A stretch of DNA of 64,000 nt, taken from the UHGV virus genome UHGV-1493261, one strand, 5' to 3'. This stretch comes from a virus. Below, piece by piece: positions 38,949-58,098 of this stretch. The position numbers and the translations under genes were made by a program. Position 1 is the first letter of the stretch. Every line of letters starts with the position of its first letter. The notes beneath the pieces are model-generated. The model did not search any database. It was not told where the DNA came from and worked only from the letters and a program-made list of their open reading frames with translations.

Positions 38949-39821
38949 ATGACAACTACATTTTCTAAGAACGTGAATCTGAATCTGGCTTTCGGTAATG
39001 CAAAGGGCGACGTCACATCGCCTGACTTTGGTAAGATCCGCAATCAGGCGAAACTGGTGCTGGAAGAGACCCGCGAACTGCTGGAAGCGGCGTTCTTTGA
39101 CCATGATGTGAAGGTGGAATTCACTGCAACTCCACGAGTCCTGAAAGAACCTGTTGTTGTCGACATCAAAGGCATTATGCGCCAGATCATGGATGCCCAT
39201 GGCGACATCACAACAGTCAACGACGGTGTGGCTCATATTGCTGGTTTCGACGGTGACGAATGCCTACAGCGCGTGTATGCCTCTAACATGAGCAAGTTCG
39301 TCCGCAATGAAGGTGAAGTTGTTCCAGCGCTGGAGTATTACTACAACAAAGGCTTCCCACGCGAAAGTCTACGCATCGAAGGGGAATTCCCTCAGGCATG
39401 CATCAAAGTGGTGGACACCATCACCGTCGACGGCAAAGAATACCCGGCTGGCAAGTTCCTGAAGAACATGGCAACCTTCAAAGAGCCTGACTTCTCTGAT
39501 ATGTTGACCACCGAGCCTAAGCGCCAGATCACCGAAATCATTCTGACGGGCACGGCTACCCCAGGTCGACTCAGTTCTAACGAACATGCTGGTGTTGCCT
39601 ACGCGCCGTTCGATTTTATTGACGAGATCGTAGGATACACCAAGATGGGCTTCCAGGCGTTCTCTGGTGAAACAATCGAGAGTTATATTCCTGTGTTTGT
39701 TTTCAATGAAGACAACTTCCCAACTCTGCCGTTGATCTGGGGTGAATGGAAAGCCAACGTTCGTATCTATGTGTCCAGCCCAGTACAATCATCTATCACC
39801 CAACTGACCCGTATCGATTAA
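38949..39821 (+). CDS. Protein with N-terminal MazG-like (all-alpha NTP pyrophosphohydrolase) signature; candidate dNTPase
   Basis: LVLEETRELLEAAF carries the EExxE motif; sits where T4 has the DNA polymerase gene after regA. Remaining about 170 aa unassigned. Confidence 0.4.
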   Translation: MTTTFSKNVNLNLAFGNAKGDVTSPDFGKIRNQAKLVLEETRELLEAAFFDHDVKVEFTATPRVLKEPVVVDIKGIMRQIMDAHGDITTVNDGVAHIAGFDGDECLQRVYASNMSKFVRNEGEVVPALEYYYNKGFPRESLRIEGEFPQACIKVVDTITVDGKEYPAGKFLKNMATFKEPDFSDMLTTEPKRQITEIILTGTATPGRLSSNEHAGVAYAPFDFIDEIVGYTKMGFQAFSGETIESYIPVFVFNEDNFPTLPLIWGEWKANVRIYVSSPVQSSITQLTRID

Positions 39822-39843
39822 GATATACAGTTATTCACTAAAC

Positions 39844-39875
39844 AACAGAGGCTATAATGGCCTCTGTTTTCTTAT
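39844..39875 (+). terminator. Rho-independent terminator
   Basis: AACAGAGGC-TATAATG-GCCTCTGTT followed by TTTTCTT; the track ATG at 39857 lies in the loop. Confidence 0.6.
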
Positions 39876-39889
39876 TCTGTGAGGATACC

Positions 39890-41086
39890 ATGAAAGACAA
39901 AGCCCTGGACGTCCCGTACTGCGGTGTCCGCGAAGAAAAGATAAAGTCGGCCAAACCGGTTCTCAGTCCGACCCATACCCGCCTGTCTTACGAATGGATG
40001 CGCGATCGTTATCAGATCCACGTCAAGAAGGACGTCCAGCGCCTTCCTGCTCCTTGGACTGATAATCCCATATTACGCCAGGTTAAATTCTGTAACGTCC
40101 GGAGAGAGCACGACAGGCAGTCTCTCAACCTGATCAATAACATTGTCAAGAACGATGCTCTGGGCATGGCAGACAAGATGTTCAACTGCGTGTTGTTCCG
40201 CATGTTCAACCTCTGGGATCCGATCCAGGCTATCGGCGGCGCGATGACGATCAAAGAATTCGCCAAGATCAACCTCGATGCAACCCGCGAACGACTTCAG
40301 AAGTTCGAGGCCGACGGCGGTAAAGTATTCACCAATGCCTTCAACACGGGCGGTCTGAAGCAATGCCTGGCTTTCCCTGAGATGGTTGTCAACCACAAGG
40401 AGCAGCGCTTCGGTGGGATGATGGTGAATCTGATCTGTAAAGACGGTTCAACCCAGAACATGGATTATAAAGAAGCCAAGGCGATAGCCGAAGCAGAGCC
40501 GGACTTCTACACCATCGAAGGTTGGGAACCGTACATGCCAATGCGTGTCATCCGCTCCCTGAAGGCATTCGTCAACAAGTATCCAAATTATTTCCATGAC
40601 CTGCTGCGCCTTGATACGCCTTTGGAAGTATACCAGCGCATGTACGACGACATCGAAGGGCTTGGTCCATTCCTGGCCTATCAGATCTGGGTTGATTTCA
40701 CGTACATTCCTGGATATCCTTTCAGTGAGAACCACTTCACGGTTGCTGGACCAGGCTGTCGCGCAGGGATTGATCTTCTGTTCCTGAACAAAGACGGTAT
40801 GACCCACGAAGAATGCATCTTCTGGTTGCGGGACAATCAGGACGCAGTTTATGGTCCTCTTGGGTATAACAGGGAAGAATTTTGGTCTGAGGAAGAGCCT
40901 TGGGATCGCCATTTAAATATAATGGCAGGAGAAAATATGTTTTGTGAACTTCAGAAATATACCCGTTGTGTAGAGGCCATACAGCAAGGTAAAAAACCGC
41001 GCGGGAAGGTTGGATACGATGGGGAAGGACGACCTAAAGCGACGACATCTGGTTCTAAAAACCTACTAAATTTATTTAAAAAGTAA
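39890..41086 (+). CDS. Hypothetical protein (398 aa), enzyme-like
   Basis: ATG with GAGGA Shine-Dalgarno after the terminator; no family recognised. Confidence 0.6.
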   Translation: MKDKALDVPYCGVREEKIKSAKPVLSPTHTRLSYEWMRDRYQIHVKKDVQRLPAPWTDNPILRQVKFCNVRREHDRQSLNLINNIVKNDALGMADKMFNCVLFRMFNLWDPIQAIGGAMTIKEFAKINLDATRERLQKFEADGGKVFTNAFNTGGLKQCLAFPEMVVNHKEQRFGGMMVNLICKDGSTQNMDYKEAKAIAEAEPDFYTIEGWEPYMPMRVIRSLKAFVNKYPNYFHDLLRLDTPLEVYQRMYDDIEGLGPFLAYQIWVDFTYIPGYPFSENHFTVAGPGCRAGIDLLFLNKDGMTHEECIFWLRDNQDAVYGPLGYNREEFWSEEEPWDRHLNIMAGENMFCELQKYTRCVEAIQQGKKPRGKVGYDGEGRPKATTSGSKNLLNLFKK

Positions 41087-41145: not shown

Positions 41146-42075
41146 ATGTTTTACGAATTATTGATTTCTAAAGGCGGTAAACCGCATTTTATCAAGAAGT
41201 ATTTGAGGATGATTCAATCTTTCAAATATTCTGATGGTGACTACACTGAATTACACCACATCCTTCCCAAGAGCATGTTCCCTGAATATTCTAAAGATAA
41301 GATCAATTTGGCAAGACTTACTGGCAGGCAACATTATCTTGCCCATGTGTGTTTGGCCTTGGCTTTCCCGAATTCTGATATGGTATATGCTGTTATTTTG
41401 ATGAGCCGTGGGGGTAGGTATACACCAACGGGTATAAAATTTAATTCTCACCTTTACGAAAAGTTAAGGAAAGAATTTGGACAAAGAATATCCAAACTCA
41501 CAAAGGGTGTCTCTAAATGCGTCGGGGCAAACAACCCAATGTATGGGAGAAGAGGAAAGAATAATCCCCAATATAGATATAAGAGAACTCCAGAGCAAGT
41601 CAAGAAAATTACCAAAGGATTGATGAAAATCCATGAAAGGATGGCTTCTGATCCTGAATATAAAAGGCGGGTTTTAGAGAAACGCCGCGCCAACATGGAT
41701 TTAGAACAATTTTCTGAACGTGCCAGGAAAGCTAAACTTGGGGAACTTAATCCAAATCATGGCAAAGATATTACCAACACGTTTACCCCTGAACAACGAC
41801 AGAAACAAATAGAAGGTATTAGAAAAGCCCATTTATCAAAAATGCCCTGGGAGAAACCGCGTTGGTCTGATGAAAAGGACATGTATTGGGCGAAAGCTGA
41901 TAAATTCCTTGAAGCAATGAAAACAATGAAAAGAGCGGAAGCCCTCATGCATGTGTACGGAACAAAGGATTTGAAGGCTTTTAATGCGACAAACAGCATT
42001 ATCGAACGTTTCAATAGAGGGTGGGAACCTTTGAAATGTCCTAAATGGACAGAACGATACGGTTCTTCTGAATAA
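41146..42075 (+). CDS. HNH homing endonuclease with NUMOD3-like motifs
   Basis: TELHHILPKSMFPEY .. NLARLTGRQHYLAHV HNH core; NPMYGRRGKNNP and GELNPNHGKD NUMOD3-like; AT-rich coding sequence; hairpin CAGGAACT..AGTTCCTG immediately upstream. Confidence 0.8.
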   Translation: MFYELLISKGGKPHFIKKYLRMIQSFKYSDGDYTELHHILPKSMFPEYSKDKINLARLTGRQHYLAHVCLALAFPNSDMVYAVILMSRGGRYTPTGIKFNSHLYEKLRKEFGQRISKLTKGVSKCVGANNPMYGRRGKNNPQYRYKRTPEQVKKITKGLMKIHERMASDPEYKRRVLEKRRANMDLEQFSERARKAKLGELNPNHGKDITNTFTPEQRQKQIEGIRKAHLSKMPWEKPRWSDEKDMYWAKADKFLEAMKTMKRAEALMHVYGTKDLKAFNATNSIIERFNRGWEPLKCPKWTERYGSSE

Positions 42076-42189: not shown

Positions 42190-44208
42190 ATGTCAGATTT
42201 TAAGTCCTTCGCAGTAGCTGTCAACAATAACGTGCTGGCCATGTCAGCAACTGGTCTGTTCATGACCAACATCGATAAAGATGCTCTGTGGGATCTGTAT
42301 CTGTCTTCTTTCCCTGCTGGCACTAACCCGCTTTATCGTGAGCGTACCGAGCACGACTGCACCTGCTGTAAACAATTCATCCGTAACATTGGCGGTGTGG
42401 TCACCATCGACTCCGACCTGAACGTGATCTCTATCTGGGATAACATTCAGCTGGGTAACGAATACGACGTTGTCTCTGCGGCGCTGTCAGCGTATGTTAA
42501 GCAGCACGCAATCGTCGACGTGTACTTCAACGACACCAAGAAAGTTGGTGTTGAGTCGAATCACGAAATGAAAGACGGTATTGTCCGCACCTACAACCAC
42601 TTCCACACCGACCTGCTGGGTAGCTATGTTCTGCGGGCAGATACCATCGCTTCTAAGAAGGGTGAAATCCGCCAGGCGATTGAAGTGTTTGAGCGCGGCC
42701 TGCGCGAACTGTCTCTGGAATCGGCTGAAATCGTCCTGGAACTGATCGATCAGAATTCTCTGTATCGCGGTGAAGAGCACAAAGCGGCAGTGCAGGCGTT
42801 CGTGGTGAACAAGACCATGTACGAACAAACTGCAGAAGAGAAACGCGCTCTGTGGGCTTGGCGCACTGGCTACCGTGCAAACGGTCATACCCCTCACGGC
42901 ATTCGTAATACCGTGATTGGCTCTCTGCTGGTAGACCTCAATGAAGGCCGGGATCTGGAAACCGCCGTGAAGTCCTTTGAAGCCAAAGTCGCTCCGACGA
43001 ACTACAAGCGCCCGACTGCGCTGGTGACAAAGTCGATGATCGAAAACGCGCAGAAAGAAGTCGAAGCGCTGGGTCTGACTGATTCGCTGGGTCGCCGTTA
43101 TGCCGTGTATGACGATCTGACCATCAACAACGTTCTGTTCGCCGATCTGGCAGCGCAGAAGAAGATGGACCCGTTTGCTCAACTGGCGTCTGAAGTGAAG
43201 ACTCCGACCAAGTCCCTGGATAAGGTTGAAGAGATCACCATCGACGACTTCCTGGCCAACGTGTTGCCAAAGGCGCATTCCATGGAAGTGCTGGTTGAGA
43301 ACTCTCACATTGGCAACCTGATGTCTCTGATCGCTCCGGCGAACCCAGATGCACCTAACCTGTTCAAGTGGAACAACGGCTTCAGCTGGTCATACAACGG
43401 TGAAGTGGCAGACTCCATCAAAGAGCGCGTGAAGACCGCTGGTGGCAACGTTGACAGCTTCCTCCGTGTGTCACTGGCTTGGCATAACAACGACGACCTG
43501 GATCTGAGCCTGAACGATCCTCTTCACAACCACGTGTACTTCCGCAACCGTCGTTCGTCAACAGGTGCAACCCTGGACATCGATATGAACGGTATGGATG
43601 GCATTGACCCAAATCGCCGTCCGGTGGAGAACATCTTCTTCAGCGATGAACGCAAGCTACGTGACGGGAATTATGAGTTCTATGTCACCAACTACAACAA
43701 GCGTGAAACCTGTGACGTTGGCTTCGAAATCGAAGTCGAATACAAAGGCCAGACCAAGCGCTTCTCACATCCTGGTCTGGGTAACAAAGATCGCACGTTG
43801 GCTGTTGTGGTTCAGGTTCGCGCTGGTCAGGTAGTAGACATCCGTTCCACCCTGAAAGACGACGAACGCTCTCAGGAAATCTGGGGTATCAAGACTGCTA
43901 CCTTCCAGAAAGTACAGCTGGTCCTGAATTCACCAAACCATTGGGACGGCGAGCAGACGGGCAACAAGCACGTGTTCTTCATCCTGGAAGGTTGCGCCAA
44001 CCCTGTGGGCACCCGTGGCTTCTACAACGAATATCTGAAGCCGGAACTGGATAAACACCGCAAGGTTTTTGAAATGTTAGGTGGTAAGATTAAAGTACAG
44101 CCAAGCACTGAGCAGCTGTCCGGTCTGGGCTTCTCTACCACCCAACGCAACCACGTGTTCGTGAAGGTGAGCGGCTCGTTCAACCGCACTGTGAAAGTTG
44201 TGTTCTAA
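42190..44208 (+). CDS. Hypothetical protein (672 aa)
   Basis: Uninterrupted ORF with AGGAAG Shine-Dalgarno; contains HDCTCC and EMKDG motifs but no family recognised. Confidence 0.7.
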   Translation: MSDFKSFAVAVNNNVLAMSATGLFMTNIDKDALWDLYLSSFPAGTNPLYRERTEHDCTCCKQFIRNIGGVVTIDSDLNVISIWDNIQLGNEYDVVSAALSAYVKQHAIVDVYFNDTKKVGVESNHEMKDGIVRTYNHFHTDLLGSYVLRADTIASKKGEIRQAIEVFERGLRELSLESAEIVLELIDQNSLYRGEEHKAAVQAFVVNKTMYEQTAEEKRALWAWRTGYRANGHTPHGIRNTVIGSLLVDLNEGRDLETAVKSFEAKVAPTNYKRPTALVTKSMIENAQKEVEALGLTDSLGRRYAVYDDLTINNVLFADLAAQKKMDPFAQLASEVKTPTKSLDKVEEITIDDFLANVLPKAHSMEVLVENSHIGNLMSLIAPANPDAPNLFKWNNGFSWSYNGEVADSIKERVKTAGGNVDSFLRVSLAWHNNDDLDLSLNDPLHNHVYFRNRRSSTGATLDIDMNGMDGIDPNRRPVENIFFSDERKLRDGNYEFYVTNYNKRETCDVGFEIEVEYKGQTKRFSHPGLGNKDRTLAVVVQVRAGQVVDIRSTLKDDERSQEIWGIKTATFQKVQLVLNSPNHWDGEQTGNKHVFFILEGCANPVGTRGFYNEYLKPELDKHRKVFEMLGGKIKVQPSTEQLSGLGFSTTQRNHVFVKVSGSFNRTVKVVF

Positions 44209-44252: not shown

Positions 44253-44624
44253 ATGTTTGATAAAGTAACCCGTCTGAAACTGCGCTTCGAGTCTAACAAA
44301 GGTCTGCTGTCTGTTGAGCAGGTCTGGGACCTGAGCCTGACCGCTCTGAACGAAATGGCGAAAAGCCTGAGCCGTCAGGTGAAGGCAGCGGAAACCGATG
44401 AAGAAGATTTCATTGGCACCAAAAGCAACGTTGACTCCGAACTGCAGCTGCGCTTCGACGTTGTCAAGCACATCATCGGCGTTAAGCTGAAAGAACGTGA
44501 CGACAGCAGAGACGCGGCAGAGCGTAAGGCGAACAACCAGGTTATCCTGGAGCTGATCCAGCGTAAGAAACAGCAAGAGCTGGAAAGCAAATCTGTTGAA
44601 GAACTGGAAGCGCTGCTGAAATAA
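44253..44624 (+). CDS. Hypothetical protein (123 aa), charged helical
   Basis: ATG with GAGGATAG Shine-Dalgarno. Confidence 0.55.
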   Translation: MFDKVTRLKLRFESNKGLLSVEQVWDLSLTALNEMAKSLSRQVKAAETDEEDFIGTKSNVDSELQLRFDVVKHIIGVKLKERDDSRDAAERKANNQVILELIQRKKQQELESKSVEELEALLK

Positions 44625-44673: not shown

Positions 44674-44684
44674 GGACAAAGAAT

Positions 44685-45059
44685 ATGAAACCTGTTATAT
44701 GTGATTACTGTGGCCTCCCAGCCGAATTCGTCGGTGGTGATGTTCTCTACCCTCATCGCCCTGACCTCCGTAATCTGAAGTTCTGGGTTTGCACCCCGTG
44801 TGATGCCCGTGTCGGTTGCCATGCCCATGGCGGCGGCAGACAACCTTTGGGAAGGATGGCGAATGCCGCTCTCCGTGCCGAGAAGCAAAATGCCCATAGA
44901 TCGTTTGACCCATTGTGGAAAAGCGGAGAGAGGAGCAGGAGCGACGCTTACAGTTGGCTGGCGCATAAGCTGGGGATAAAGAAGCGTGAGTGTCATATTG
45001 GTTTGTTCGATATCGACATGTGCCGTAAAGTAGTGGAGGTCTGTAAACAAATATCATAG
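44685..45059 (+). CDS. Zinc-ribbon protein (124 aa)
   Basis: CDYCG .. CTPCD cysteine pairs; internal ATG of track ORF 44658, whose GTG start lies in the terminator. Confidence 0.5.
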   Translation: MKPVICDYCGLPAEFVGGDVLYPHRPDLRNLKFWVCTPCDARVGCHAHGGGRQPLGRMANAALRAEKQNAHRSFDPLWKSGERSRSDAYSWLAHKLGIKKRECHIGLFDIDMCRKVVEVCKQIS

Positions 45060-45067
45060 GATAACAC

Positions 45068-45940
45068 ATGACAAATCGTACTGGCATAAAACTCACTCCT
45101 GAAGTCCTGAAGTCACATATCGCTGAGGTGATTTACGAAGACCGCGAAGTCGGCGGTCACCGGGCTATCACTTGTCATTTCAAGATGGATAACGGCTTCG
45201 TCGTTCACGGCACCAAGCCCAGCACATCCATAGACCCGGCCAACTTCGATGAAGCCCTGGGCAAAGAGATTTCCTACAATAACACCTTCGACCAGCTGTG
45301 GCAGCTGGAGGCGTACCGGGCGCTTGTTGAACAAGATCTGTTGGCCAAAGCCACGGAAACGGCAGAGATACAGATCGATCAATACGCTGTTGAACGTAGC
45401 GCCCTCTGTCCGGCCTATCACCTCGGCTTCAATGTGATGGTTCAGGAAGTGATGTTCAAAGCGGAAAATGGTGAGCGCTTCTTGGCATCTTTCGTTTGTG
45501 GGCCGGATGACATGGAACTTGTTGTTGAATCTCACAACGCCAAATCTCGTAAGGCTGTTAGTGATTTCCTGCGCGCCAACTCCAAACTCGATCTCACTTA
45601 TTCGCCATTGGTTCTGCGCATCGCCAAGATTTGTCATGAAGCCAACCGCGCATACTGCAAGTCTATTGGTGACGACTCTCAACTGCCTTGGGAACAATCT
45701 CCGGCCTGGCAGCGTGAGAGCGCTTGCAAAGGTGTTATCTTCCATCTCACTGGTGATCGTAAGCCCAGCGAATCGCATGAGAGATGGATGGCGGAGAAGG
45801 AGTCTGAGGGATGGGTGTATGGCCCAGTCAAAGACCCTCAGACCAAGCAACACCCTTGCATGGTTCCGTATGGAGAACTCCCGGTACAACAACGCTCCAA
45901 AGATTATATTTTCAAATCCATTGTAGACTCCTTTAAATAA
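45068..45940 (+). CDS. RyR-domain-containing protein
   Basis: C-terminal ESHERWMAEKESEGWVYGPVKDPQTKQHPCMVPYGELPVQQRSKD matches the RyR repeat pattern (W..GW.YG .. K.HP.LVPY.EL). Confidence 0.6.
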   Translation: MTNRTGIKLTPEVLKSHIAEVIYEDREVGGHRAITCHFKMDNGFVVHGTKPSTSIDPANFDEALGKEISYNNTFDQLWQLEAYRALVEQDLLAKATETAEIQIDQYAVERSALCPAYHLGFNVMVQEVMFKAENGERFLASFVCGPDDMELVVESHNAKSRKAVSDFLRANSKLDLTYSPLVLRIAKICHEANRAYCKSIGDDSQLPWEQSPAWQRESACKGVIFHLTGDRKPSESHERWMAEKESEGWVYGPVKDPQTKQHPCMVPYGELPVQQRSKDYIFKSIVDSFK

Positions 45941-46090: not shown

Positions 46091-46267
46091 ATGACCGACA
46101 ACAAATTAAAACGCGCCGGACTTGATTGTCTTGACAATTCATTCCGCCCCAGTGATGTTCTGGTCGCCCAAATGGAAAACAACCGGGATTTCATTGAAAC
46201 TATGCTGGAGAACGCCGACGCGAACTCCAAACACTCCAAAGCCCAAAAAGGTCAAAACGATGATTGA
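46091..46267 (+). CDS. Small hypothetical protein (58 aa)
   Basis: ATG overlapping the vWA gene start. Confidence 0.35.
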   Translation: MTDNKLKRAGLDCLDNSFRPSDVLVAQMENNRDFIETMLENADANSKHSKAQKGQNDD

Positions 46268-49193: not shown

Positions 49194-49196
49194 TTC

Positions 49197-49238: not shown

Positions 49239-49252
49239 GCAGGAACTATACC

Positions 49253-49759: not shown

Positions 49760-49796
49760 CCCACGGCGGGGTATGATTACCCCGCCCATTTGAAAC
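49755..49796 (+). promoter_or_regulatory. Cassette: TATAAC, hairpin GGCGGGGTATGATTACCCCGCC, CATTTGAAAC
   Basis: Near-identical repeat of the cassette at 49197. Confidence 0.45.
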
Positions 49797-49810
49797 CAAG
49801 AGACTATATC

Positions 49811-50469: not shown

Positions 50470-50470
50470 T

Positions 50471-50661: not shown

Positions 50662-51111
50662 ATGTTCCTTACATCCTTTATTGACTGGTTGAACATCATT
50701 AACGGCCTGAGGATCCCTGTTGGGAACCTCGGGCTTTCTCGTTCTTCTATGCCGCAAATCGATGCCGACAAACAAGAAGATTTTCACAAATATCTTGAAG
50801 ACAACGGCGTGTCCATAGATGCTGCGCAAGTGCCCATCAAAATGCTTCGTCTTACCCAGAACGAAATCAACAAGATGAAGGTCTGGAAGATTATGAAGCA
50901 GATCAGAAATAAGAAACCTATGGGTCGAGTTTGGGTGTCTTCTGACAATTACGTTGTTGACGGTTCTCACCGATTTGTCGCTGCGTTGAACATGGACGGC
51001 AAACAGCGCATGAAGGTCTACAAAGTTGATTTACCAGCGATGGAATTTGTTAAACTCGCTAAACAGTTTCAGGGTGTGCGATACAGAACGGTCAGCGATA
51101 CCCGTTTCTGA
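50662..51111 (+). CDS. ParB/Srx-fold (ParB-like nuclease domain) protein
   Basis: VVDGSHRFVAAL matches the ParB N-terminal DGxHR motif; GAGGTG Shine-Dalgarno. Confidence 0.55.
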   Translation: MFLTSFIDWLNIINGLRIPVGNLGLSRSSMPQIDADKQEDFHKYLEDNGVSIDAAQVPIKMLRLTQNEINKMKVWKIMKQIRNKKPMGRVWVSSDNYVVDGSHRFVAALNMDGKQRMKVYKVDLPAMEFVKLAKQFQGVRYRTVSDTRF

Positions 51112-51190: not shown

Positions 51191-51877
51191 ATGAAACGTT
51201 TAATCCTCGGGGTTGTGCTGGCTGGTCTGGCATTACCCGCCGCTGCCAAGCTGAACTCCACAGGTGATAAACTGTGGTCCGACCTTTCCTATTGTGCTGG
51301 GTTCTCCCAGGCGGTTGCTATCGACAAGTCTGGTTCCATAGAGAACTTCGCTGAACTCTGGAACACAGGCAACGTCTCCACCGCTGTCATCAATGCCGGA
51401 ATTGAGTTCAACCGTTACAAACAGGGAGCCTATAACCTCAAGGGCTACCTCAATGACGACGAATTTAACCGTGGAGGCATGGAGGCTGGCGATTTGATCA
51501 TGACTGGGCGTATGGGCACCCAAGGCCGAATGACCGTAAGACAGTGCCGTTCGCTCCCTTCTCCGGCATTACAGAAGGGTGTGCAGATAGGCCGCCGTCA
51601 CCTGAACCTCATCAACGATGGCAACCAGTGCATCAAAGTATTCGAATACAGCGCTACGCAGACCTCTGATCGCGTCCTGAAGAAGGAATGGCGCACTCGC
51701 GCTCTCGGTCTCAGAGCCTGGCTGGTTGAGAACGATTATTACTTTGAAGACAGGGTTCAGAACGGTCTGAAAGACCTGGCCACGAATCTGAGCGTGAACC
51801 TTGATGATCCTCGCATGTCGCGCGAACTCCAGCAGACTCGTGTTGACTGCGACAATATGATGAAGGAGAACGAGTGA
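51191..51877 (+). CDS. Secreted protein (228 aa, Sec signal peptide)
   Basis: MKRLILGVVLAGLALPAAA; AGGAG Shine-Dalgarno; internal ATG of track ORF 51026. Confidence 0.6.
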   Translation: MKRLILGVVLAGLALPAAAKLNSTGDKLWSDLSYCAGFSQAVAIDKSGSIENFAELWNTGNVSTAVINAGIEFNRYKQGAYNLKGYLNDDEFNRGGMEAGDLIMTGRMGTQGRMTVRQCRSLPSPALQKGVQIGRRHLNLINDGNQCIKVFEYSATQTSDRVLKKEWRTRALGLRAWLVENDYYFEDRVQNGLKDLATNLSVNLDDPRMSRELQQTRVDCDNMMKENE

Positions 51878-52203
51878 TGAAATGTAAAATCCTGCTCTTG
51901 TTGGTACTGATAGCCGGGTGTGTAAACGCCGCGCCACCGTCCAAACTGAACACATGTGTGGCATGGATGGAGACGTATCAGCAGTTCCACCCAGATGACA
52001 AAGATACATCTATCCTCTTGTCTGACTTCGAGGGAGAGCTGAAGCGCCTTGATCTGTTCAGTGTTGATCAGATAGAGAATGCGCTGGATCTTCCCATGAT
52101 GCTGACTGCGGCTGACAACAGTTCACAAACGAAGAAAGACCTGATGTATTGCCGGGGGATTGCCCAGGACTTTGTCGGATTTCAAAATAAAGTTTCGGGT
52201 TAA
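51877..52203 (+). CDS. Lipoprotein (108 aa)
   Basis: MKCKILLLLVLIAGC with lipobox LIAGC; GAAGGAGAA Shine-Dalgarno; several mature-domain Cys. Confidence 0.6.
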   Translation: MKCKILLLLVLIAGCVNAAPPSKLNTCVAWMETYQQFHPDDKDTSILLSDFEGELKRLDLFSVDQIENALDLPMMLTAADNSSQTKKDLMYCRGIAQDFVGFQNKVSG

Positions 52204-52243: not shown

Positions 52244-53110
52244 ATGCTCCTGACCAAAACAATCGCTGCAGCGATTATCGAAAAGAATAAGGCTTTTGCC
52301 CCCAACGCAGCCAAAGTTATGTTGGTACACGAAGACGCTCGCGTGATCTTCGCCGAGAAGTTCGAGATGGGCGCGAAGTTCTGGTATGCCGACAACTTAC
52401 GTGAGAGCAAACTTCAGGGTATCATCCACAAACTGACTCTGGTCGCCAAGCGTAATGACCAGGGTGACTGGGTCGGCGTTTCTGACTTCAGTACGAAGAT
52501 CACCCCAAAGGCTCCACTTTCTCGTCAAGAGCGCATTCTGGAAGCCCAGGAAAAGCTGCGTGCGGCTCGGAGTACCCCAAAGGCGAAACCAGATGCAAGC
52601 CCTGTCATCAAGCCAGCGGTTGTTCCTAAGTCCAAATACCTCCCGCCCGTGAGTCAAAAGGCTGTGGAGCAATTGGTTGAGAAGCGCAAGGGTGACGTTG
52701 TGATGAAGTCTGACTCTTCAGTGGAGCCGTTCAAGCCGGATCCAGCAGAAGTACAGGCGCTGGCAGAAAAGGTAAAGAATTCACAATTCATTTCCCTGCG
52801 TGAACTTGAACCGCCTACTCGCCGTCGTATCGCCAACGAGCTGTTTGTGTCGTTCAGGTCGGATGGCAAGATCGTCCTGTGCAAAGCCCTGCGCGATGCA
52901 ATCCCTTGGACAACTCTGAACATGATGGTCACTCGCGACTTCAAGCGTTTTGGTATCATGCAAGGCAAGGACTACAACGTGAACCAGAGTGGGACTTATG
53001 TTAATCGCGCCATGTGTGACAAACTGACCTTCCCAGAAGATACTGGAACGATCCGTGTCGTTCTGAATTGGGACGACAAGCTGAACATGTATGTTGGCGA
53101 TTTCCAATAA
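52244..53110 (+). CDS. Hypothetical protein (288 aa) with a basic Pro/Lys-rich linker
   Basis: ATG with GAAGGAA Shine-Dalgarno (track ORF 52160). Confidence 0.55.
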   Translation: MLLTKTIAAAIIEKNKAFAPNAAKVMLVHEDARVIFAEKFEMGAKFWYADNLRESKLQGIIHKLTLVAKRNDQGDWVGVSDFSTKITPKAPLSRQERILEAQEKLRAARSTPKAKPDASPVIKPAVVPKSKYLPPVSQKAVEQLVEKRKGDVVMKSDSSVEPFKPDPAEVQALAEKVKNSQFISLRELEPPTRRRIANELFVSFRSDGKIVLCKALRDAIPWTTLNMMVTRDFKRFGIMQGKDYNVNQSGTYVNRAMCDKLTFPEDTGTIRVVLNWDDKLNMYVGDFQ

Positions 53111-53121
53111 TCAATAACCTC

Positions 53122-53157
53122 GGGCGGCTTATCATAAAGCTGCCCTTTCATTTGAGT
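53122..53157 (+). promoter_or_regulatory. Cassette: GC hairpin (GGGCGGCTT..AAGCTGCCC), CATTTGAG
   Basis: Same architecture as the cassettes at 36961, 42116, 49197 and 49755. Confidence 0.3.
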
Positions 53158-53166
53158 GACTATATC

Positions 53167-53829
53167 ATGGAAAAACTTTATTCTATTATCGTCGGTCCTG
53201 ATCCTGACGGATTATTCTTCGCCCCGTTGTCTTATATTGCCCACGCCCGTATCGGCAGCCATTACGCATATTGCACACGTGGCCACGACGGTTCCAATAT
53301 CCTCCATTATAGCCGCCTGAACGATTTCCTGGCACTTCAACCAGAAGATGTTGTGCTGGCGCGTCGCGTGTTCATCGACTTCAACGCTATGCACAACAAC
53401 GAAATTGACGCTCGCTATCATGCCATGCGTTCTATGGAAGGGGGAGACTGCATTTATCGTATCGACCATTTTAGTGAGTTTACCCAATCTATTGATTGGT
53501 TCGTTTCAGAAAAGACGTTGGGTGAAAGAATCGTCACAACTCCGTGGGCACATGCGGAACAACTTCGTGTGTCTACCGATGCGTACAAAGAAGTCGACAA
53601 TCTGTGCAACAAGTTCCGCATCTCTGTGACCTGTAATCAAGACCCGGGCGAAGAGATACAATGGACAGCCGAGTCTCCTCATTTCAGTGGCCTGGTGATG
53701 ACGGCCGAAACCCGTTCCCGTGCTGTTGTCCAGTTAGTACTCTGGGCGTTCTACCAGCGCACCCCGTTCTCATACATGGGACAGAAAGAGATTGATGAAC
53801 TCCTGAAGTCTCACGCGGTGGAGGTGTGA
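53167..53829 (+). CDS. Hypothetical protein (220 aa)
   Basis: ATG in a ctatatcATG leader. Confidence 0.55.
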   Translation: MEKLYSIIVGPDPDGLFFAPLSYIAHARIGSHYAYCTRGHDGSNILHYSRLNDFLALQPEDVVLARRVFIDFNAMHNNEIDARYHAMRSMEGGDCIYRIDHFSEFTQSIDWFVSEKTLGERIVTTPWAHAEQLRVSTDAYKEVDNLCNKFRISVTCNQDPGEEIQWTAESPHFSGLVMTAETRSRAVVQLVLWAFYQRTPFSYMGQKEIDELLKSHAVEV

Positions 53830-53830
53830 T

Positions 53831-54268
53831 ATGGCTGGCGTATGGTGTGATGTCTTGCTGGTTCGTTACAGCGTAAATGGGAGCACGCAAGTGTGTTCTG
53901 CTTTCTATCCGGTCCCGTTCTCTTCCGGTGGCCTGACGGTTCAGCGAGTTCTTGATATTGAGGCAGATCTGAACACGAAGCCATATATCGGTGATACACA
54001 AGTGTTGGGATACGATCTTCTGAACGAAATGTTGATCGATGAAGATCGTGTAGAAACCATTGTTAGCCGTCAAGAAATGGAGGTCTTGATGAAACCGGAA
54101 GGCACCGAAAAGACTGAAGTTCAAACGATGTCTGTGCCTGTCGCGCCAACACAGGAACGCCTTGATGCCATTGCTGGATTATTCACGTATGGATTTTGTG
54201 ATGATCGCATGGCTCGTGGTATCTATGCCGCCGCACTGGGCGTTGAGAAACAAACGGAGCAAATATGA
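53831..54268 (+). CDS. Hypothetical protein (145 aa)
   Basis: Tightly packed after the upstream stop. Confidence 0.5.
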   Translation: MAGVWCDVLLVRYSVNGSTQVCSAFYPVPFSSGGLTVQRVLDIEADLNTKPYIGDTQVLGYDLLNEMLIDEDRVETIVSRQEMEVLMKPEGTEKTEVQTMSVPVAPTQERLDAIAGLFTYGFCDDRMARGIYAAALGVEKQTEQI

Positions 54269-54534
54269 GCACAAAGACTGTAATCGTGTGGGGAGTCGGT
54301 ATGGGGCGTTGTTGTCCTCACAAGACGATCACATTCACACAGGATGACCGTGTAGAAATCTCTCGCATCGAGACAGCCGAAGCACCTGTTGGGGATTCAA
54401 TGATCAGAACTCCGGTGTCCCGTGTGCAGGTATTGCGCCCAGTAGTTGAGGTCATTTGCGAAGATTGCGGACAGCGCGGCACCATGATGTTGGAAGAGAA
54501 TTCTGATGAAGAAATCGTGGTGAAAGGCTATTAA
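54265..54534 (+). CDS. Small Cys-containing protein (89 aa)
   Basis: RCCPH .. CEDC; ATGA overlap with the upstream gene. Confidence 0.4.
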   Translation: MSTKTVIVWGVGMGRCCPHKTITFTQDDRVEISRIETAEAPVGDSMIRTPVSRVQVLRPVVEVICEDCGQRGTMMLEENSDEEIVVKGY

Positions 54535-54624: not shown

Positions 54625-54903
54625 ATGAATCGTACTGAATTTGTTGCCCACATTGCTTCGACCCAGAATATCACCAAAGGCGAAGCGGAGAAAGTGGTGG
54701 CATCCTTTATCGACGGTGTTAAAACTGCAGTTGCTGCAGGCGCATCTGTACAGCTGGTCGGCTTCGGTGCGTTCGAAGTGAAACACCAAGAAGCGCGTGA
54801 AGGTCGCAACCCTCTGAACGGCCAGACCATTCAGATCGCGGCGAAAAACGTTGTGAAATTCAAAGTGGGCGAAGGTCTGAAGAACGCTGCCAACGGCAAG
54901 TAA
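54625..54903 (+). CDS. HU/IHF-family DNA-binding protein
   Basis: GFGAFEVKHQEAREGRNPLNGQTIQIAAKNVVKFKVGEGLK matches the HU beta-arm signature. Confidence 0.85.
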   Translation: MNRTEFVAHIASTQNITKGEAEKVVASFIDGVKTAVAAGASVQLVGFGAFEVKHQEAREGRNPLNGQTIQIAAKNVVKFKVGEGLKNAANGK

Positions 54904-55031: not shown

Positions 55032-56750
55032 GTGACAGCATTCAACCAATATACCAAGGCGCTTGACGGCGTCGGACCAGTCAGCATAGACCGCATCAAG
55101 TCTCTTGCCACTGAGTTCTTCCCGTATGACACCGCCAACCCCGGCCAGATGGAATGCATCGTTGAAGCCATTGATGCCCTTGTGAATAAGAAATTCAAAC
55201 ACGTGATCATCGAGGCTCCGACTGGTGTAGGTAAATCCCTCATCGGCACTACCATCCATAACGTGCTTCGCCATTTGGTTCTTGAGCACAACCCGTATGG
55301 TCAGTTCCGCACGTCTATCACGACGCCGACCAAAGGTTTACAGGATCAGTATGCAGCAGAGAAAGCCGTGGCGATAGACATCCTGAAGGGCAAGAAGAAC
55401 TACCGTTGCCACATCAGTCCCGACCTATACTACAACGCCATTCAGTGCCGTATGGCATGCCGTGATGGCCACTGTAGTAAGAATCGTTGCCCATATGTTC
55501 AGGCGCGTCGACAGTGGACCGACGTCTCCTCCTTGCGCTGCACCAACGCCGCCATGATGGTGGAGATGTGCACGACGATCTGTATGAAGCCGGAAAACCG
55601 CGCCGATATGCTGATCCTTGACGAGTGTCATAAGATGCCCTCTACGCTCCTAGAGCATACTATCATGGAATACAACACAAAGGCTGTGGAAGGGCTGCTT
55701 ACGATCCCCGAGGGAGTGCCTATCGTGGAGACCATCAAGGATATCATCATCCGCACAGAGAACTATGAATTGGGCAAGCTGTATTCCCTGTCTGGTGAGA
55801 TGCATGCGATATTTGATGAACTGCACGGCAAGGTTGAAGCCCTGTTGGAAACTCTTGAGGAACTGGTAGAGGACGAGCGCCTGACTGAAGCCCAGGTGAT
55901 GAAGCTGTCTGATATTATTGATACTCTTCACAACCTCAGCGACTACTGTGGTATCATGGGGCAGACCAACGCCAGCACTTTCATCGTACAGGAGAAGGAC
56001 AAGGGTATGATTCAGTTCAAGCCTGTCATCGCCTCTGATGTATCCCAGTTCGGTCTGTTCCGCAAGGGTGACTACCACGTCCACATGTCGGCGACCATTT
56101 GTGGGATTGACTCGTACGCCCGGTCACTGGGTATCCGTGAGGGTGAGTACCACAAGATACAGATCGGCAACCCTATCCCGATTGAGAACCGGAAAGTCAA
56201 CTACATGCCCATCATGAAGATGACGGCGAACATGGGTGACTACGAGATGAAGAAGCTGGCTGAATACGTGGATGAGATTATCGCGTTCCACCCTGGACAG
56301 TCTGGCATCATTCACACAGTCAGTTATGACCGCGCCCTGGCTCTACAGAAGTTCAGTAAGTACCGGAATATGATTCACGTTCCTCGTACTCGTAAGGCTC
56401 TGATGGACATCATGGAACACGCGTTCAGGACGAAGACGCCTTGTGTCATCGCCAGTCCGGCCATGGAAGAGGGGTATGACTTCAAAGGCGATTATAGTCG
56501 ATTTCAGATCTTGATCAAGGTGCCATACGATTACCTTGGTGATCCTCTGGTGGCCCACGTCAACAGTGTGGACCCATCGGCGTACTTCAGGATGGCGGTA
56601 CTGCGTATCGTTCAGATGTGTGGGCGTTCTGTCAGGGGCGTGAATGACTGGGCTGCGACATACATCCTTGATTCTTCTTTTGAATCACTGATGATGCGCA
56701 ACCCAGAGTTCTTCCCCGCTTGGTTCACTGATGCCGTGTTTGAGGTTTAG
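55032..56750 (+). CDS. DinG/XPD-family (Rad3-like) Fe-S helicase
   Basis: GTG start with GGAGGAAG Shine-Dalgarno; APTGVGKS Walker A, LILDECHK DEAH-like box, four-Cys cluster CHISPDLYYNAIQCRMACRDGHCSKNRC. Confidence 0.8.
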   Translation: MTAFNQYTKALDGVGPVSIDRIKSLATEFFPYDTANPGQMECIVEAIDALVNKKFKHVIIEAPTGVGKSLIGTTIHNVLRHLVLEHNPYGQFRTSITTPTKGLQDQYAAEKAVAIDILKGKKNYRCHISPDLYYNAIQCRMACRDGHCSKNRCPYVQARRQWTDVSSLRCTNAAMMVEMCTTICMKPENRADMLILDECHKMPSTLLEHTIMEYNTKAVEGLLTIPEGVPIVETIKDIIIRTENYELGKLYSLSGEMHAIFDELHGKVEALLETLEELVEDERLTEAQVMKLSDIIDTLHNLSDYCGIMGQTNASTFIVQEKDKGMIQFKPVIASDVSQFGLFRKGDYHVHMSATICGIDSYARSLGIREGEYHKIQIGNPIPIENRKVNYMPIMKMTANMGDYEMKKLAEYVDEIIAFHPGQSGIIHTVSYDRALALQKFSKYRNMIHVPRTRKALMDIMEHAFRTKTPCVIASPAMEEGYDFKGDYSRFQILIKVPYDYLGDPLVAHVNSVDPSAYFRMAVLRIVQMCGRSVRGVNDWAATYILDSSFESLMMRNPEFFPAWFTDAVFEV

Positions 56751-57514
56751 TAACCCGCAACGAAGGACAGATGGCACTTGACATTCGGTTCCAACGACGT
56801 CACAGAAACCGTCATATTGTCCGTATCTTGGCTGAAGTCAATGGTGGCGAGAGGTTTGGTCTGAATATGGTTATAGACACTGTAGATCAGATCCTCGCCA
56901 CGATACCCTACCTTCCCATCGGTGTCTTGCCAATGACCCAGTGTCTCATCGTAGACATGCACTCTGAACTCGATCATATGGAAGAGTGCCTTGGGGATGT
57001 CCTTGAGTACGCTGGTGCCAACCACGGGAATCTCTATACTGGAATCATTGGAGTTCCCTTCATAGACCGAAGCCCATGCAAAGGTAGGATCACCCCCAGC
57101 AACAGGGGTTCGCTTCCAGTATTGGAATTCTGGGTTGCCCGAAGCGTTCTTCTGAAGTAGAATGACCTCACCACCTTTGAAGTTCGAGGTATCGATGTCG
57201 CCTCGCTGAAGTTCATCTGCTGGAGATCCAATAAATTTCCAACCTTCGCGATCCAGTAAAGACTTATAATAGTCGGTGAACACGTTGCTGTCTTCTGCAT
57301 CGTTGATGGCATCTTTGAGACCTTGGCCTGTCACCATCTCGTTGAGCTTCAACCACATGTTCTTGACAGCAGACGCTGCTGCGACTTGTCCAGCAGTCCC
57401 ACCTGCAGCATAATCATAGATGATATCTTCTGACTTGATAGCATCATAGATAGAGAGGAGCAATTGCTCAATCTGCGGGGCGGTGAGACTGAAACGATAT
57501 GCGCGGGGTGCCAT
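56747..57514 (-). CDS. Hypothetical protein (255 aa); start uncertain
   Basis: ATG at 57514 with AGAGGAA Shine-Dalgarno; track ORF extends to 57673 but would overlap the divergent RNase H gene. Confidence 0.5.
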   Translation of the reverse strand: MAPRAYRFSLTAPQIEQLLLSIYDAIKSEDIIYDYAAGGTAGQVAAASAVKNMWLKLNEMVTGQGLKDAINDAEDSNVFTDYYKSLLDREGWKFIGSPADELQRGDIDTSNFKGGEVILLQKNASGNPEFQYWKRTPVAGGDPTFAWASVYEGNSNDSSIEIPVVGTSVLKDIPKALFHMIEFRVHVYDETLGHWQDTDGKVGYRGEDLIYSVYNHIQTKPLATIDFSQDTDNMTVSVTSLEPNVKCHLSFVAGY

Positions 57515-57559
57515 AGTTTCATTCCTCTTTCTATAAAACCAGTTTGGGATATTTATATC

Positions 57560-58087
57560 ATGATAGAAATTTATTCTGACGGGGGTTCTAACCCGAAGAC
57601 CAACCAGGCCGCAGGCTGGGCATTTGTCATCAGGCCAATAACGGGTATGCAATGGAAGGTGTTCTTCGGCCATCTACCTCCCCCGTCCACCAACAATATC
57701 GCCGAGTTGTTGGGCGTGACCAACGCATTGAAGCTACTGTGGGCATTCTCAGGAAAGGGTGAGCGCAGAATACCAAAGGCAACAATTTGGTCTGACAGCC
57801 AATACACCATCAAGAGTGTCACCGAATGGCGAACGAAGTGGGAGTATCAGGGGTTCCCAGAAAAGAACGTTGAACTCATCAAAGATCTGTTCAGAATCTA
57901 TGATCTCGTTTGTTCAATCTGTGAAGTTGAACTAAAATGGGTTAAGGGTCATGCGGGGCACGAAGGCAACGAACTTGCCGATGACTGGGCCACAGCAGCC
58001 AAAAACGACAGCAACTTCCTGATTGAGAATGACAATATCTCGGTGAAGAAGGTTGTTGGATCTTTTGATGAATTTATCGGTATCTGA
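57560..58087 (+). CDS. rnhA: Ribonuclease HI (bacterial-type RNase H)
   Basis: IYSDGGSNPKTNQAAGWAFVI, NNIAELLGVTNALK, IWSDSQYTI and KGHAGHEGNELADDWA match the RNase HI DEDD fold. Confidence 0.85.
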   Translation: MIEIYSDGGSNPKTNQAAGWAFVIRPITGMQWKVFFGHLPPPSTNNIAELLGVTNALKLLWAFSGKGERRIPKATIWSDSQYTIKSVTEWRTKWEYQGFPEKNVELIKDLFRIYDLVCSICEVELKWVKGHAGHEGNELADDWATAAKNDSNFLIENDNISVKKVVGSFDEFIGI

Positions 58088-58098
58088 GGGCTATCATA

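Follow-up and report, generated by a model that had tools for sequence, protein, structure and literature searches.

What fills the roughly 19 kb between regA and the late sigma factor gene gp55 in the 64,000-nt stretch of virus genome UHGV-1493261 analysed here (the window), and is it a variable accessory region, as an earlier note proposed, or a regular part of the genome in phages of this kind? The flanks are clear. On the left, the genes for the gp45 sliding clamp (g45; 36273-36941; 100% amino acid identity to AV101), the g44 (ending at 38011) and g62 (38016-38438) clamp loader proteins and RegA (38468-38932; Pfam Translat_reg 2e-34; 100% amino acid identity to AV101) occupy 36273..38932 on the plus strand and are annotated identically in Maynard, AV101 and ViI; on the right, also on the plus strand, stand gp55 (58099-58890; phrog_234 3.4e-52), SbcD-like gp47 (58877-59992; phrog_100 1.3e-106) and SbcC-like gp46 (59985-62330; Pfam SMC_N 1.2e-10). 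The order 45-44-62-regA, a long insert, then 55-47-46 had been described correctly and with the right coordinates, and the T4 order with which it was compared (55, a-gt, 47, 46, rpbA, 45, 44, 62, regA, 43) matches the NC_000866 annotation. The interval holds 26 genes rather than 25, of which 25 lie on the plus strand and one (56747-57514) on the minus strand. Pfam, PHROG and structure searches gave a family or domain label to about 15 of them, so that "mostly unrecognised" was too strong a description; 10 are without a functional label after domain, PHROG and fold searches. No DNA polymerase or glucosyltransferase gene lies in the interval, again as reported: in AV101, the nearest relative, the polymerase gene (6092-9091) is some 98 kb distant from regA, and a 14-nt overlap of gp55 with gp47 leaves no room between them for any gene, glucosyltransferase or other. 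Both the unlinking of the polymerase from the clamp loader and the absence of a glucosyltransferase are family traits; Ackermannviridae of this kind modify thymidine, not cytosine, and the window phage is Agtrevirus-like, close to AV101, ZQ1 and vB_CECAV_050.

The regA-gp55 stretch is very probably a standard collinear block of the enterobacterial ViI-like phages, interrupted by a few strain-variable slots, and therefore ordinary and previously documented rather than a variable island. When 33 window proteins were compared by tblastn with 13 loci from seven enterobacterial genera (Agtrevirus, Kuttervirus, Limestonevirus, Taipeivirus, Miltonvirus, Nezavisimistyvirus and a Yersinia phage), a sample drawn from similarity matches and thus favouring relatives that share the block, not one break in gene order was found, the type phage ViI included, which keeps the same order from Vi01_135c to Vi01_101c. 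Nine of the 26 block genes are present in 13/13 genomes and 16 in at least 11, and only three are rare: an HNH homing endonuclease gene, a ModA/ModB-like ADP-ribosyltransferase gene and an 89-aa ORF. By megablast the block is matched by 284 phage records, 30 of which cover at least 80% of it, and Agtreviruses cover 86-93% at about 95% identity, equal to the flanks. Published comparisons likewise describe conserved synteny, with NAMPT/RPPK, homing nucleases and the tail-spike cluster as the variable elements (PMC10791037), and an organisation "scattered" relative to T4 (PMC11721090). Given synteny, gene presence, the 284 matches and these comparisons, the reading as a variable accessory region largely falls: related phages share content and order in every enterobacterial member of the Ackermannviridae examined. 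Among what survives of it is non-T4 material between two T4-like modules. The stronger version, a hyperplastic T4-like island in which host-takeover genes each ride on their own mobile promoter/hairpin cassette, is largely refuted by the same synteny matrix, and the recognisable content is mainly DNA metabolism, DNA modification, lysis and a virion protein, not host takeover.

Whether the window genome might itself have newly acquired the block as a foreign island is a separate matter. Such an exchange has happened elsewhere: the Kutterviruses Maynard and Marshall carry an Agtrevirus-type copy in place of their own block, and the breakpoints, at 38916-38945 and about 58205, are clean. In the window, however, the block and its surroundings match Agtreviruses equally well (identity inside/outside: AV101 94.9/94.9, CECAV_050 95.0/94.6) and GC stays at 0.48-0.53 throughout, the HNH gene excepted, which makes recent acquisition exceedingly improbable.

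The block nevertheless has a clade-specific component, and to this extent the idea of an accessory region was justified. In the two distant genera sampled, the Vibrio-infecting Vapseptimavirus (VP-1, whole genome) and Kujavirus (Kuja, part of the genome), regA and gp55 stand only about 4 kb apart. Between them VP-1 carries a ParB-like gene, a helicase, p3833 (the virion protein gene) and RNase H, and Kuja the ParB-like gene, helicase and RNase H, with p3833 upstream of g45 instead; of the remaining block proteins, 22 in number, none is detectable in the whole VP-1 genome. The other 15 kb or so is therefore inferred to be a clade-specific expansion fixed in the enterobacterial phages, unless it was lost in the Vibrio clade instead. 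The block would then be a co-directional array of early- or middle-type genes, judged so by inference, built in three evolutionary layers rather than as one system. The first, a family-ancestral core of ParB/sulfiredoxin (Srx)-fold protein, DinG-like helicase, RNase H and divergent virion protein, is all that lies between regA and gp55 in the Vibrio-infecting genera (the virion protein in VP-1 only). The second would be the enterobacterial expansion, consisting of 38949-50629 (MazG-like, aG/PT-PPlase1, DUF8224 with its partner, vWFA and ACP-like genes) and 51191-54903 (spanin pair and HU). The third would comprise five indel slots, located at gene junctions that carry hairpins, with strain-variable cargo: HNH; DUF3268 plus gp49/RyR (NAMPT/RPPK in relatives); ADP-ribosyltransferase (DenV in ViI); small membrane proteins or lipoproteins; and an empty RNaseH|gp55 site. 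What was observed is the genes present, their collinearity and distribution, the breakpoints, the motifs and the folds; the enzyme activities named below for the window's proteins are all predicted.

The left part, all on the plus strand, opens with a predicted MazG-like nucleoside triphosphate pyrophosphohydrolase of 290 aa (38949..39821; phrog_2144 4.5e-130, phrog_671 1.4e-20; no Pfam, NCBIfam or PDB sequence match), which all 13 genomes have and Vibrio phage VP-1 lacks. It is followed by the orthologue of ViI gp160, an aG/PT-PPlase of clade 1 (39857..41086; Pfam HMUDK_hel 1.1e-78), which occupies the position of Vi01_130c/orf00160 with 76% amino acid identity to ViI and is a member of the gene set for thymidine hypermodification. 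A terminator-like hairpin at 39844-39868 overlaps its first ATG, and the true start may be 39890. In ViI, gp160 is one of five genes (gp67, gp160, gp226, gp243 and gp247) sufficient for 5-NeOmdU synthesis, its necessity being left undecided by the hypermodification papers themselves (PMC5889632); its role is also treated in PMC8989533. Further on lie a 672-aa DUF8224 (PF26675) protein with a TerD-like beta-sandwich domain (42190..44208), its 123-aa partner (44253..44624; phrog_2018 1e-46), a 58-aa protein (46091..46267; phrog_11447 6e-45), a 733-aa vWFA-domain protein found in 13/13 genomes (46260..48461; Pfam VWA 5e-08, VWA_3 1.2e-06; phrog_2426) and an acyl-carrier-protein-like protein (48504..48830; Pfam PP-binding 5.7e-05, above the cut-off; phrog_4154 1.9e-54). 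It is tempting to unite the whole block, or only the 10 kb on its left, in a single Ter-like pathway for nucleotide metabolites or DNA modification, with MazG-like, aG/PT-PPlase1, DUF8224 (TerD-like), vWFA (TerY-like) and ACP members and, in relatives, phosphoribosyltransferases. The vWFA and ACP-like genes adjoin and are co-conserved, NAMPT and RPPK-like genes are interposed among the members in AV101, Ag3 and Menlow, and the members, the PPlase included, are jointly missing from VP-1. Yet DUF8224 gives no sequence-level TerD match and an empty Foldseek search; in unrelated phages it is accompanied only by a 125-aa partner (a homologue directly follows it in two unrelated contigs, at 35%, E 3e-26, and 44%, E 1e-32) and not by vWFA or ACP; only one gene of the sufficient ViI set is in the block; and for the NAMPT/RPPK-like pair a different function, NARP1, is known. 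A single pathway is accordingly unlikely, and a collinear block of mixed content is preferred here as well.

The right part begins with three small plus-strand genes (49811..50629) encoding a signal-peptide protein (phrog_5474), a phrog_4458 protein and a 50-aa membrane protein (phrog_14464), present in 7-10 of the 13 genomes. The core follows with a 149-aa plus-strand protein (50662..51111) whose AF2 model (pLDDT 84) is matched by Foldseek to the ParB N-domain (5k5d_B, E 3.5e-4, prob 1.00), Srx and Noc; it is called "ParB/Sulfiredoxin domain" in UniRef, has an invariant DGSHR motif (D100-R104) and occurs in 13/13 genomes as well as VP-1 (43%) and Kuja (46%). A predicted spanin pair (51191..52203, +; phrog_4260 3e-154; phrog_3843 "Rz-like spanin" 1.1e-54) consists of a 228-aa secreted or periplasmic protein (i-spanin) and a 108-aa lipoprotein (Rz-like o-spanin, lipobox LIAGC), and Marshall is annotated with i-spanin and Rz-like spanin at this pair. 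Beyond slot D are an HU-type DNA-binding protein (54625..54903, +; Pfam Bac_DNA_binding 6e-30; 13/13 genomes) and a core DinG/XPD-type (Helicase_C_2) DNA helicase (55032..56750, +; Helicase_C_2 4.8e-12, ResIII, DEAD; phrog_2488 7e-260), also in VP-1 (40%) and Kuja (36%). The sole minus-strand gene (56747..57514; 255 aa; phrog_3833 8e-160) has homologues that are listed as an "unknown structural protein" for LIMEstone1 and as a "virion structural protein" for CECAV_050 and FKP10; 35 nt upstream of this gene, at 57550-57557(-), is the only TATAAATA of the window. The last gene of the interval, also core, encodes an RNase H of RNase HI type (57560..58087, +; Pfam RNase_H 7.9e-25), found in all genomes, VP-1 and Kuja included.

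Variation is confined to the slots, whose contents in relatives were read directly from annotation tables. Slot A holds the HNH homing endonuclease gene (41146..42075, +; phrog_655 2.1e-60, phrog_12434 5e-18), a low-GC insertion (0.387 versus about 0.50) with counterparts only in AV101 (77%) and Coodle (50%) among the 13 genomes. Slot B contains a DUF3268 zinc-finger protein (44682..45059, +; Pfam DUF3268 1.2e-37; 9/13 genomes) and a protein with Phage_gp49_66 and RyR domains (45068..45940, +; Pfam 1.4e-11 and 2.6e-10) that is 97-99% identical to those of Maynard, Marshall and CECAV_050 and 38-47% identical or absent elsewhere; AV101, Ag3 and Menlow have NAMPT and/or RPPK there. Within 52244..54534 (+), a phrog_3828 protein precedes the slot D cargo of phrog_5426, DUF7425 and the Cys-rich 89-aa ORF (phrog_31251; only Ag3, at 45%, has a counterpart among the 13), a slot filled in ViI, KE28 and Menlow by Sie, LysM or lipoprotein genes. 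The fifth site, the RNaseH|gp55 junction, is empty in the window; other phages have a gene for a GIY-YIG endonuclease there.

Slot C bears most directly on host takeover. After a 79-aa protein (48954..49193, +; phrog_804 4.7e-29) comes a putative ModA/ModB-like ADP-ribosyltransferase of 168 aa (49253..49759, +; phrog_832 "RNA polymerase ADP-ribosylase" 1e-15), in which R46, S74 and E136-x-E138 are invariant in an alignment with T4 ModA and ModB. On this sequence evidence it is a credible candidate host-takeover gene, and as such survives from the earlier reading. It occurs in 67 of about 280-340 Ackermannviridae-type records (284 in one search, 357 in another), CBA120 orf140 carrying the same annotation, and is absent from Maynard and Ag3; in ViI, DenV takes its place. 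It lies between 62-nt direct repeats (D1; 81% identity, spacing 558 nt) of a hairpin cassette, GGCGGGGTATGATTACCCCGYC plus YATTTGAAA plus RBS, at 49195..49256 and 49753..49814 (both +); relatives keep the cassette, and Ag3 shows a compensatory change in it. Hairpins at junctions are real (of 17 intergenic gaps 30 nt or longer, 11 form stable ones on folding, and five of these coincide with terminators annotated in Maynard) and may act as terminators or RNA stability elements, but the accompanying claim of dedicated promoters and terminators fares less well: sigma-70-like promoter matches do not exceed chance (27 versus 20.9 +/- 4.3 in shuffles) and terminator-like sites do so only mildly (26 versus 18.4 +/- 4.3). 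The five indel slots, the repeat-bounded ADP-ribosyltransferase gene, the patchy distribution of that gene, the foreign GC of the HNH gene and the shorter interval in Vibrio-infecting genera all speak for a T4-like island, whereas invariant order, near-universal genes, only three rare ones, Agtrevirus identity equal to the flanks and a single duplicated cassette type (three copies in 64 kb) make it very unlikely.

T4-type hyperplastic regions carry mobile promoter/stem-loop cassettes (PeSL), and slot C resembles these in that repeated stem-loop cassettes in the intergenic gaps enclose a variable ORF, with ADP-ribosyltransferase or DenV as alternative cargo behind the same cassette; it differs in that duplicated cassettes occur at one slot only, the surrounding genes are conserved and not hyperplastic, and the promoter scan showed no early-promoter consensus. 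The 45-44-62-regA and 55-47-46 modules are homologous to, and each internally collinear with, those of T4, but in the window they stand in opposite relative order, 19 kb apart, with gene 43 about 98 kb away (AV101) and a-gt, mobB and rpbA missing from the cluster. The ADP-ribosyltransferase shares with T4 ModA/ModB the R-S-ExE signature in register, small single-domain size and PHROG family 832, but is only about 20% identical (BLASTP only E 0.009) and lacks the N-terminal 33 or so residues. Relative to the ViI 5-NeOmdU pathway (Lee et al. 2018, 2021), 39857-41086 is the syntenic gp160 (aG/PT-PPlase1) orthologue, and counterparts of gp67, gp226, gp243 and gp247 are not in the block. The closest likeness is to ViI (Vi01_131c to Vi01_104c), AV101, Ag3, ZQ1 and vB_CECAV_050, which have the same flanks, orientation and gene order and share the MazG-like, gp160 PPlase1, DUF8224 and partner, vWFA, ACP, ParB-like, spanin, HU, helicase, structural protein and RNase H orthologues. 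Slot cargo alone differs: slot C has the ADP-ribosyltransferase gene in the window, DenV in ViI and nothing in Ag3, the RNaseH|gp55 junction is without a GIY-YIG gene in the window, and the window also has the HNH gene after the PPlase, a Maynard/CECAV-type gp49/RyR allele in place of NAMPT/RPPK, and the rare 89-aa ORF.

What lies between regA and gene 55 in this genome is a known feature of enterobacterial Ackermannviridae, their collinear regA-gp55 block, and not a variable island. Its layout had been described correctly in the earlier note: the ORF map and family searches place 45-44-62-regA on one side (gp45 at 36273-36941, followed by gp44, gp62 and RegA at 38468-38932, the last with Pfam Translat_reg at 2e-34) and 55-47-46 on the other (gp55 at 58099-58890, gp47 at 58877-59992, gp46 at 59985-62330), all on the plus strand in a single orientation, and the same arrangement recurs in the 13 comparator loci. 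The T4 gene order cited there matches the T4 record and, given that gp55 and gp47 overlap, nothing, and hence no glucosyltransferase, lies between them. The position and flanks of the block stand as described; the count of 25 genes does not, as 26 are found at 38949-58087, all but one (56747-57514, minus strand) of them on the plus strand. In the Escherichia phage AV101 the DNA polymerase gene (6092-9091) lies about 98 kb from regA. Within the left flank, 37500-38500 (the 3' part of gp44 plus gp62) is another small mosaic patch, in which identity to all Agtrevirus relatives falls to about 81-89%, against 96-100% in the adjoining segments.

Comparison of the block by megablast with 50,697 phage records yielded 284 matching records, all of them Ackermannviridae-type phages and none identical to the window. 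The Escherichia phages AV101, PC3 and ZQ1 and Salmonella phage vB_CECAV_050 match best, with 86-93% of the block aligned at about 95% identity, so the window represents an Agtrevirus-like phage. Collinearity was assessed by tblastn of 33 translated window genes against 13 loci, drawn from Agtrevirus (AV101, ZQ1, CECAV_050, Ag3), Kuttervirus (ViI, KE28, Maynard, Marshall), Limestonevirus (Coodle), Taipeivirus (Menlow), Miltonvirus (2050H1), Nezavisimistyvirus (Bue1) and a Yersinia phage, and not one break in order was seen in any of them. Nine of the 26 genes occur in all 13 genomes (MazG-like, PPlase, vWFA, ParB-like, Rz-like spanin, HU, helicase, the minus-strand gene and RNase H) and 16 in at least 11, while three are rare: the HNH endonuclease (2/13), the ART-like gene (4/13) and an 89-aa ORF at 54265-54534 (1/13). 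Among Agtreviruses, 86-93% of the block is covered at 95-96.5% identity, the same as the flanks (94.9% for AV101 in both), and gene content does not differ substantially between these close relatives in the manner of a hyperplastic or accessory region. GC content is uniform over the block with the exception of the HNH gene (0.387). A recent foreign island in this genome was also considered and was rejected because block identity to Agtreviruses equals flank identity. The earlier note had given a conserved core block, alike in gene content and order among related phages, as the result that would refute its variable region, and that result is what the comparison yields. Conserved architecture and synteny have been published, and NAMPT/RPPK, homing nucleases and the tail-spike cluster are named there as what varies (PMC10791037); the same gene series is given in a study of six Vi01-like phages (PMC10892097). 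The finding as originally posed is already known, its value lying mainly in the correction, since comparison with T4 alone makes the standard backbone of a well-sequenced phage family look like an accessory island; block replacement in Maynard and Marshall and a layered history are modest additions.

Some of the accessory idea does survive at greater evolutionary distance. Searches with the minus-strand protein also pick up Vibrio-infecting Ackermannviridae, among which VP-1 (Vapseptimavirus) has the order 45-44-62-regA, ParB-like gene (43% identity), helicase (40%), structural gene (35%, on the opposite strand), RNase H (39%) and 55-47-46, in a regA-gp55 interval of only about 4.4 kb; the remaining 22 block proteins are undetectable across the whole VP-1 genome. 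Kuja (Kujavirus) has the same compact interval, at about 4.1 kb, so that the block is not a feature of every genus of the family, VP-1 and Kuja having an interval of about 4 kb without 22 of the 26 genes. Relative to these phages, 38949-50629 and 51191-54903, together about 15 kb, are extra material, collinear and fixed in the seven enterobacterial genera. Gene content suggests a layered history comprising a four-gene ancestral core, a clade-fixed 15 kb that may be a gain in the enterobacterial genera or a loss in the Vibrio-infecting ones, and five cargo slots. This presumed expansion includes the PPlase of thymidine hypermodification, the MazG-like enzyme, HU, the spanins and very widespread unknowns such as vWFA and DUF8224 with its partner.

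The block has moved as a whole between genera. Maynard and Marshall are classified as Kuttervirus, and in the flanks they share 66-84% identity with the window and 86-95% with Kuttervirus KE28; over the block itself, their identity to the window jumps to 87-100%. Mean identity to the window is, for Maynard, 94.7% over the block against 75.5% over the flanks and, for ViI, 77.2% against 75.5%. Breakpoints were placed with sites at which three Agtreviruses agree among themselves and differ from two Kutterviruses. Up to 38916, Maynard and Marshall each show 54 Kuttervirus-type and 2 unassigned of 56 informative sites, and from 38945 onward 160 of 162 sites are of Agtrevirus type (one Kuttervirus-type, one unassigned), locating a shared left junction within 38916-38945, at the regA/MazG boundary. 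The right junctions differ: in Maynard (locus L001, 6001-23900) it falls at 58205|58206, 107 nt into gp55, and in Marshall (L019) at about 58,900-59,000. Maynard and Marshall therefore carry Kuttervirus backbones with an Agtrevirus-type copy of exactly this block, the exchanged tract coinciding almost exactly with the region originally delimited. Genus boundaries in the Ackermannviridae evidently do not stop the exchange of some 20 kb of replication and modification genes, and the swap bears both on average-identity taxonomy and on the engineering of these therapeutic phages.

How such an exchange might come about is a matter of conjecture. The right junction of Maynard adjoins a GIY-YIG homing endonuclease gene that arrived with the block; this gene shares 97.5% identity with its same-site counterpart in Yersinia phage CAU_YEP3 and is absent from ViI and KE28. 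An HNH-type endonuclease gene lies about 0.9 kb inside the left junction. In a mixed infection, homing endonucleases might make double-strand breaks, and gap repair might then copy the whole interval of about 19 kb from the donor. That the regA-to-gp55 block regularly passes from genus to genus as one discrete unit, perhaps through the action of homing endonucleases, is a tentative and on balance doubtful proposition.

As to what the block encodes, it opens with a MazG-like pyrophosphohydrolase (38949-39821, PHROG matches only) and the PPlase (39857-41086), which matches Pfam HMUDK_hel (PF18723, 1.1e-78), occupies the position of Vi01_130c/orf00160 and shares 76% amino acid identity with ViI. 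The HMUDK_hel/DNA-glycosylase-like domain and synteny with ViI gp160 together identify it as a clade 1 aG/PT-PPlase. ViI gp160 belongs to a set of five genes from which lysates regenerate 5-NeOmdU, a result that shows the set to suffice but not that gp160 itself is needed (PMC5889632); group transfer on 5-PmdU DNA would be the predicted activity of 39857-41086. An HNH homing endonuclease (41146-42075) follows, and the genes after it include Pfam-recognized DUF3268 zinc-finger, gp49/RyR-domain, vWFA and ACP-like proteins. Further along lie a predicted spanin pair (51191-52203, from PHROG and the Marshall annotation) and, by Pfam, HU (54625-54903), a DinG/XPD-type helicase (55032-56750) and RNase H (57560-58087), all on the plus strand; LIMEstone1 and other relatives have the product of the minus-strand gene (56747-57514) annotated as a structural protein of the virion. 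NCBIfam gave no name for nine of ten conserved proteins, Pfam relaxed to E values of up to 5 gave only noise for ten unlabeled ones, PDB sequence searches with the ART-like, MazG-like and ParB-like proteins and a DUF8224 profile found nothing, and Rfam and tRNA scans of the block were likewise empty. Judged by these family matches, the recognizable content covers the control of DNA precursors, the modification of DNA, DNA transactions and lysis, plus a single virion protein, with the ART-like gene (49253-49759) as the one clear candidate for host takeover. The concentration of host-takeover functions claimed for the block is for the most part not borne out, and it is a poor priority as a source of novel genes of this kind.

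Two of the less familiar components merit separate comment. DUF8224 (42190-44208, 672 aa) and its partner of about 125 aa (123 aa here, 44253-44624) form a two-gene module (window 42190-44624; locus L013, 3464-5889; L014, 8001-10647). The module is kept in unrelated phage contigs of 100-210 kb at identities of about 50% (DUF8224) and 35-44% (partner), and more than 5600 homologs are found; vWFA and ACP were rejected as fellow travelers, co-occurrence in unrelated phages holding only for the partner. One domain of DUF8224 is predicted to have the beta-sandwich fold of TerD, the sole clue to its fold; Pfam and NCBIfam TerD models and PDB profiles gave no match, nor did Foldseek against the PDB below an E value of 0.01. 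An invariant DDLDL at residues 435-439 is suggestive only as a Ca-binding motif, and no solved structure matches the 400 residues at the N terminus, among which E51, R52, E54, D56, C57 and C60 are invariant. The ParB-like protein (50662-51111, 149 aa) has no sequence-level Pfam match; Foldseek assigns a probability of 1.00 to ParB, Srx and Noc (best E 3.5e-4), and an invariant D100-G-S-H-R104 box of the GxxR/DGxHR type accompanies the ParB/sulfiredoxin fold. Its gene is one of only four in the interval that the Vibrio-infecting genera also have. Free serine kinases and SbnI adopt this fold as well, which is intriguing beside a serine-derived thymidine modification.

Promoter/hairpin cassettes had also been described, and here the hairpins hold up and the promoters do not. 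Of 17 intergenic gaps that are 30 nt or longer, 11 form stable hairpins, the strongest lying at slot edges and coinciding with terminators annotated in Maynard. A sigma-70 scan returned 27 sites versus 20.9 +/- 4.3 expected, a chance-level and uninformative result that leaves the promoter part of the description unsupported. GC-rich hairpins also lie over the first in-frame starts of gp44 (a cassette copy at 36972-36998, within 36965-37025) and the PPlase gene (39844-39868, within 39844-39890); the true starts are probably the downstream ATGs, at about 37022 (MSNITIV) and 39890 (MKDKAL), matching the annotation in relatives. The T4 late-promoter motif TATAAATA has a single exact match in 64 kb, on the minus strand at 57550-57557, 35 nt upstream of the minus-strand gene, which is not significant alone (reached in 51 of 100 shuffles). 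This lone match implies that the family's late promoters differ from those of T4 and are not simply TATAAATA. A literature search on Ackermannviridae transcriptomics returned unrelated papers only.

Five indel slots emerge within the block when annotation tables are compared. Slot A, at the PPlase-DUF8224 junction, holds the HNH gene here; small ORFs or different endonuclease genes take its place in other genomes. Slot C (ACP-ParB-like junction) holds the ART-like gene here and in AV101, KE28 and CBA120, DenV in ViI and nothing in Maynard or Ag3. Slot D (phrog_3828-HU junction) contains phrog_5426, DUF7425 and the 89-aa ORF here, and Sie, LysM and lipoprotein genes in ViI. The 89-aa product is Cys-rich (CCPH...CEDC), matches phrog_31251 (1.7e-26) and has a counterpart (45%) only in Ag3 among the 13, making it the rarest block gene. 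Slot E (RNaseH-gp55 junction) is empty here; in Maynard, Marshall, CAU_YEP3 and Coodle it carries a GIY-YIG endonuclease gene.

The product of the ART-like gene in slot C matches PHROG 832 (RNA polymerase ADP-ribosylase) at 1e-15 and has R46, S74 and E136-x-E138 invariant and in register with the R-S-ExE residues of T4 ModA and ModB, with an E value of only 0.009 against ModB in pairwise BLASTP and no PDB or Pfam match. On sequence grounds it is a likely ModA/ModB-type enzyme, for which NAD-dependent ADP-ribosylation of host proteins is predicted. Direct repeats of 62 nt (49195-49256 and 49753-49814), each combining a GC hairpin with YATTTGAAA and a ribosome-binding context, bracket the gene. 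The cassette is single-copy in genomes without the ART-like gene, precedes denV in ViI (L012, 17500-18060) and carries a compensatory change in its stem in Ag3, and alternative cargo genes seem to be swapped at this site. Repeated stem-loop cassettes flank a variable ORF at this slot only: the specific cassette has only three good copies in 64 kb, and the generalized hairpin + YATTTGA pattern has four matches versus 1.2 expected, a weak excess. Within 49000-51111, the ART-like and ParB-like genes share 95-99% identity with Kuttervirus KE28 or ViI and their neighbors 62-88%, a smaller, gene-scale exchange between genera inside the block; the ParB-like gene itself is 98-99% identical to KE28 and ViI and 83-85% to Maynard and Ag3.

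Slot B, at the partner-vWFA junction, holds DUF3268 and gp49/RyR in this genome, RPPK and NAMPT in AV101 and Menlow, and NAMPT alone in Ag3. Set against L003 (8968-12520), the window has at 44625-46090 no RPPK-like and NAMPT-like pair, which occupies this slot in 8 of 14 published Agtreviruses. Counter-defense or takeover genes turn over in the slots (ART-like, DenV, NAMPT/RPPK, superinfection exclusion), and the RPPK/NAMPT pair that relatives carry in slot B resembles the NARP1 NAD-reconstitution counter-defense pair.
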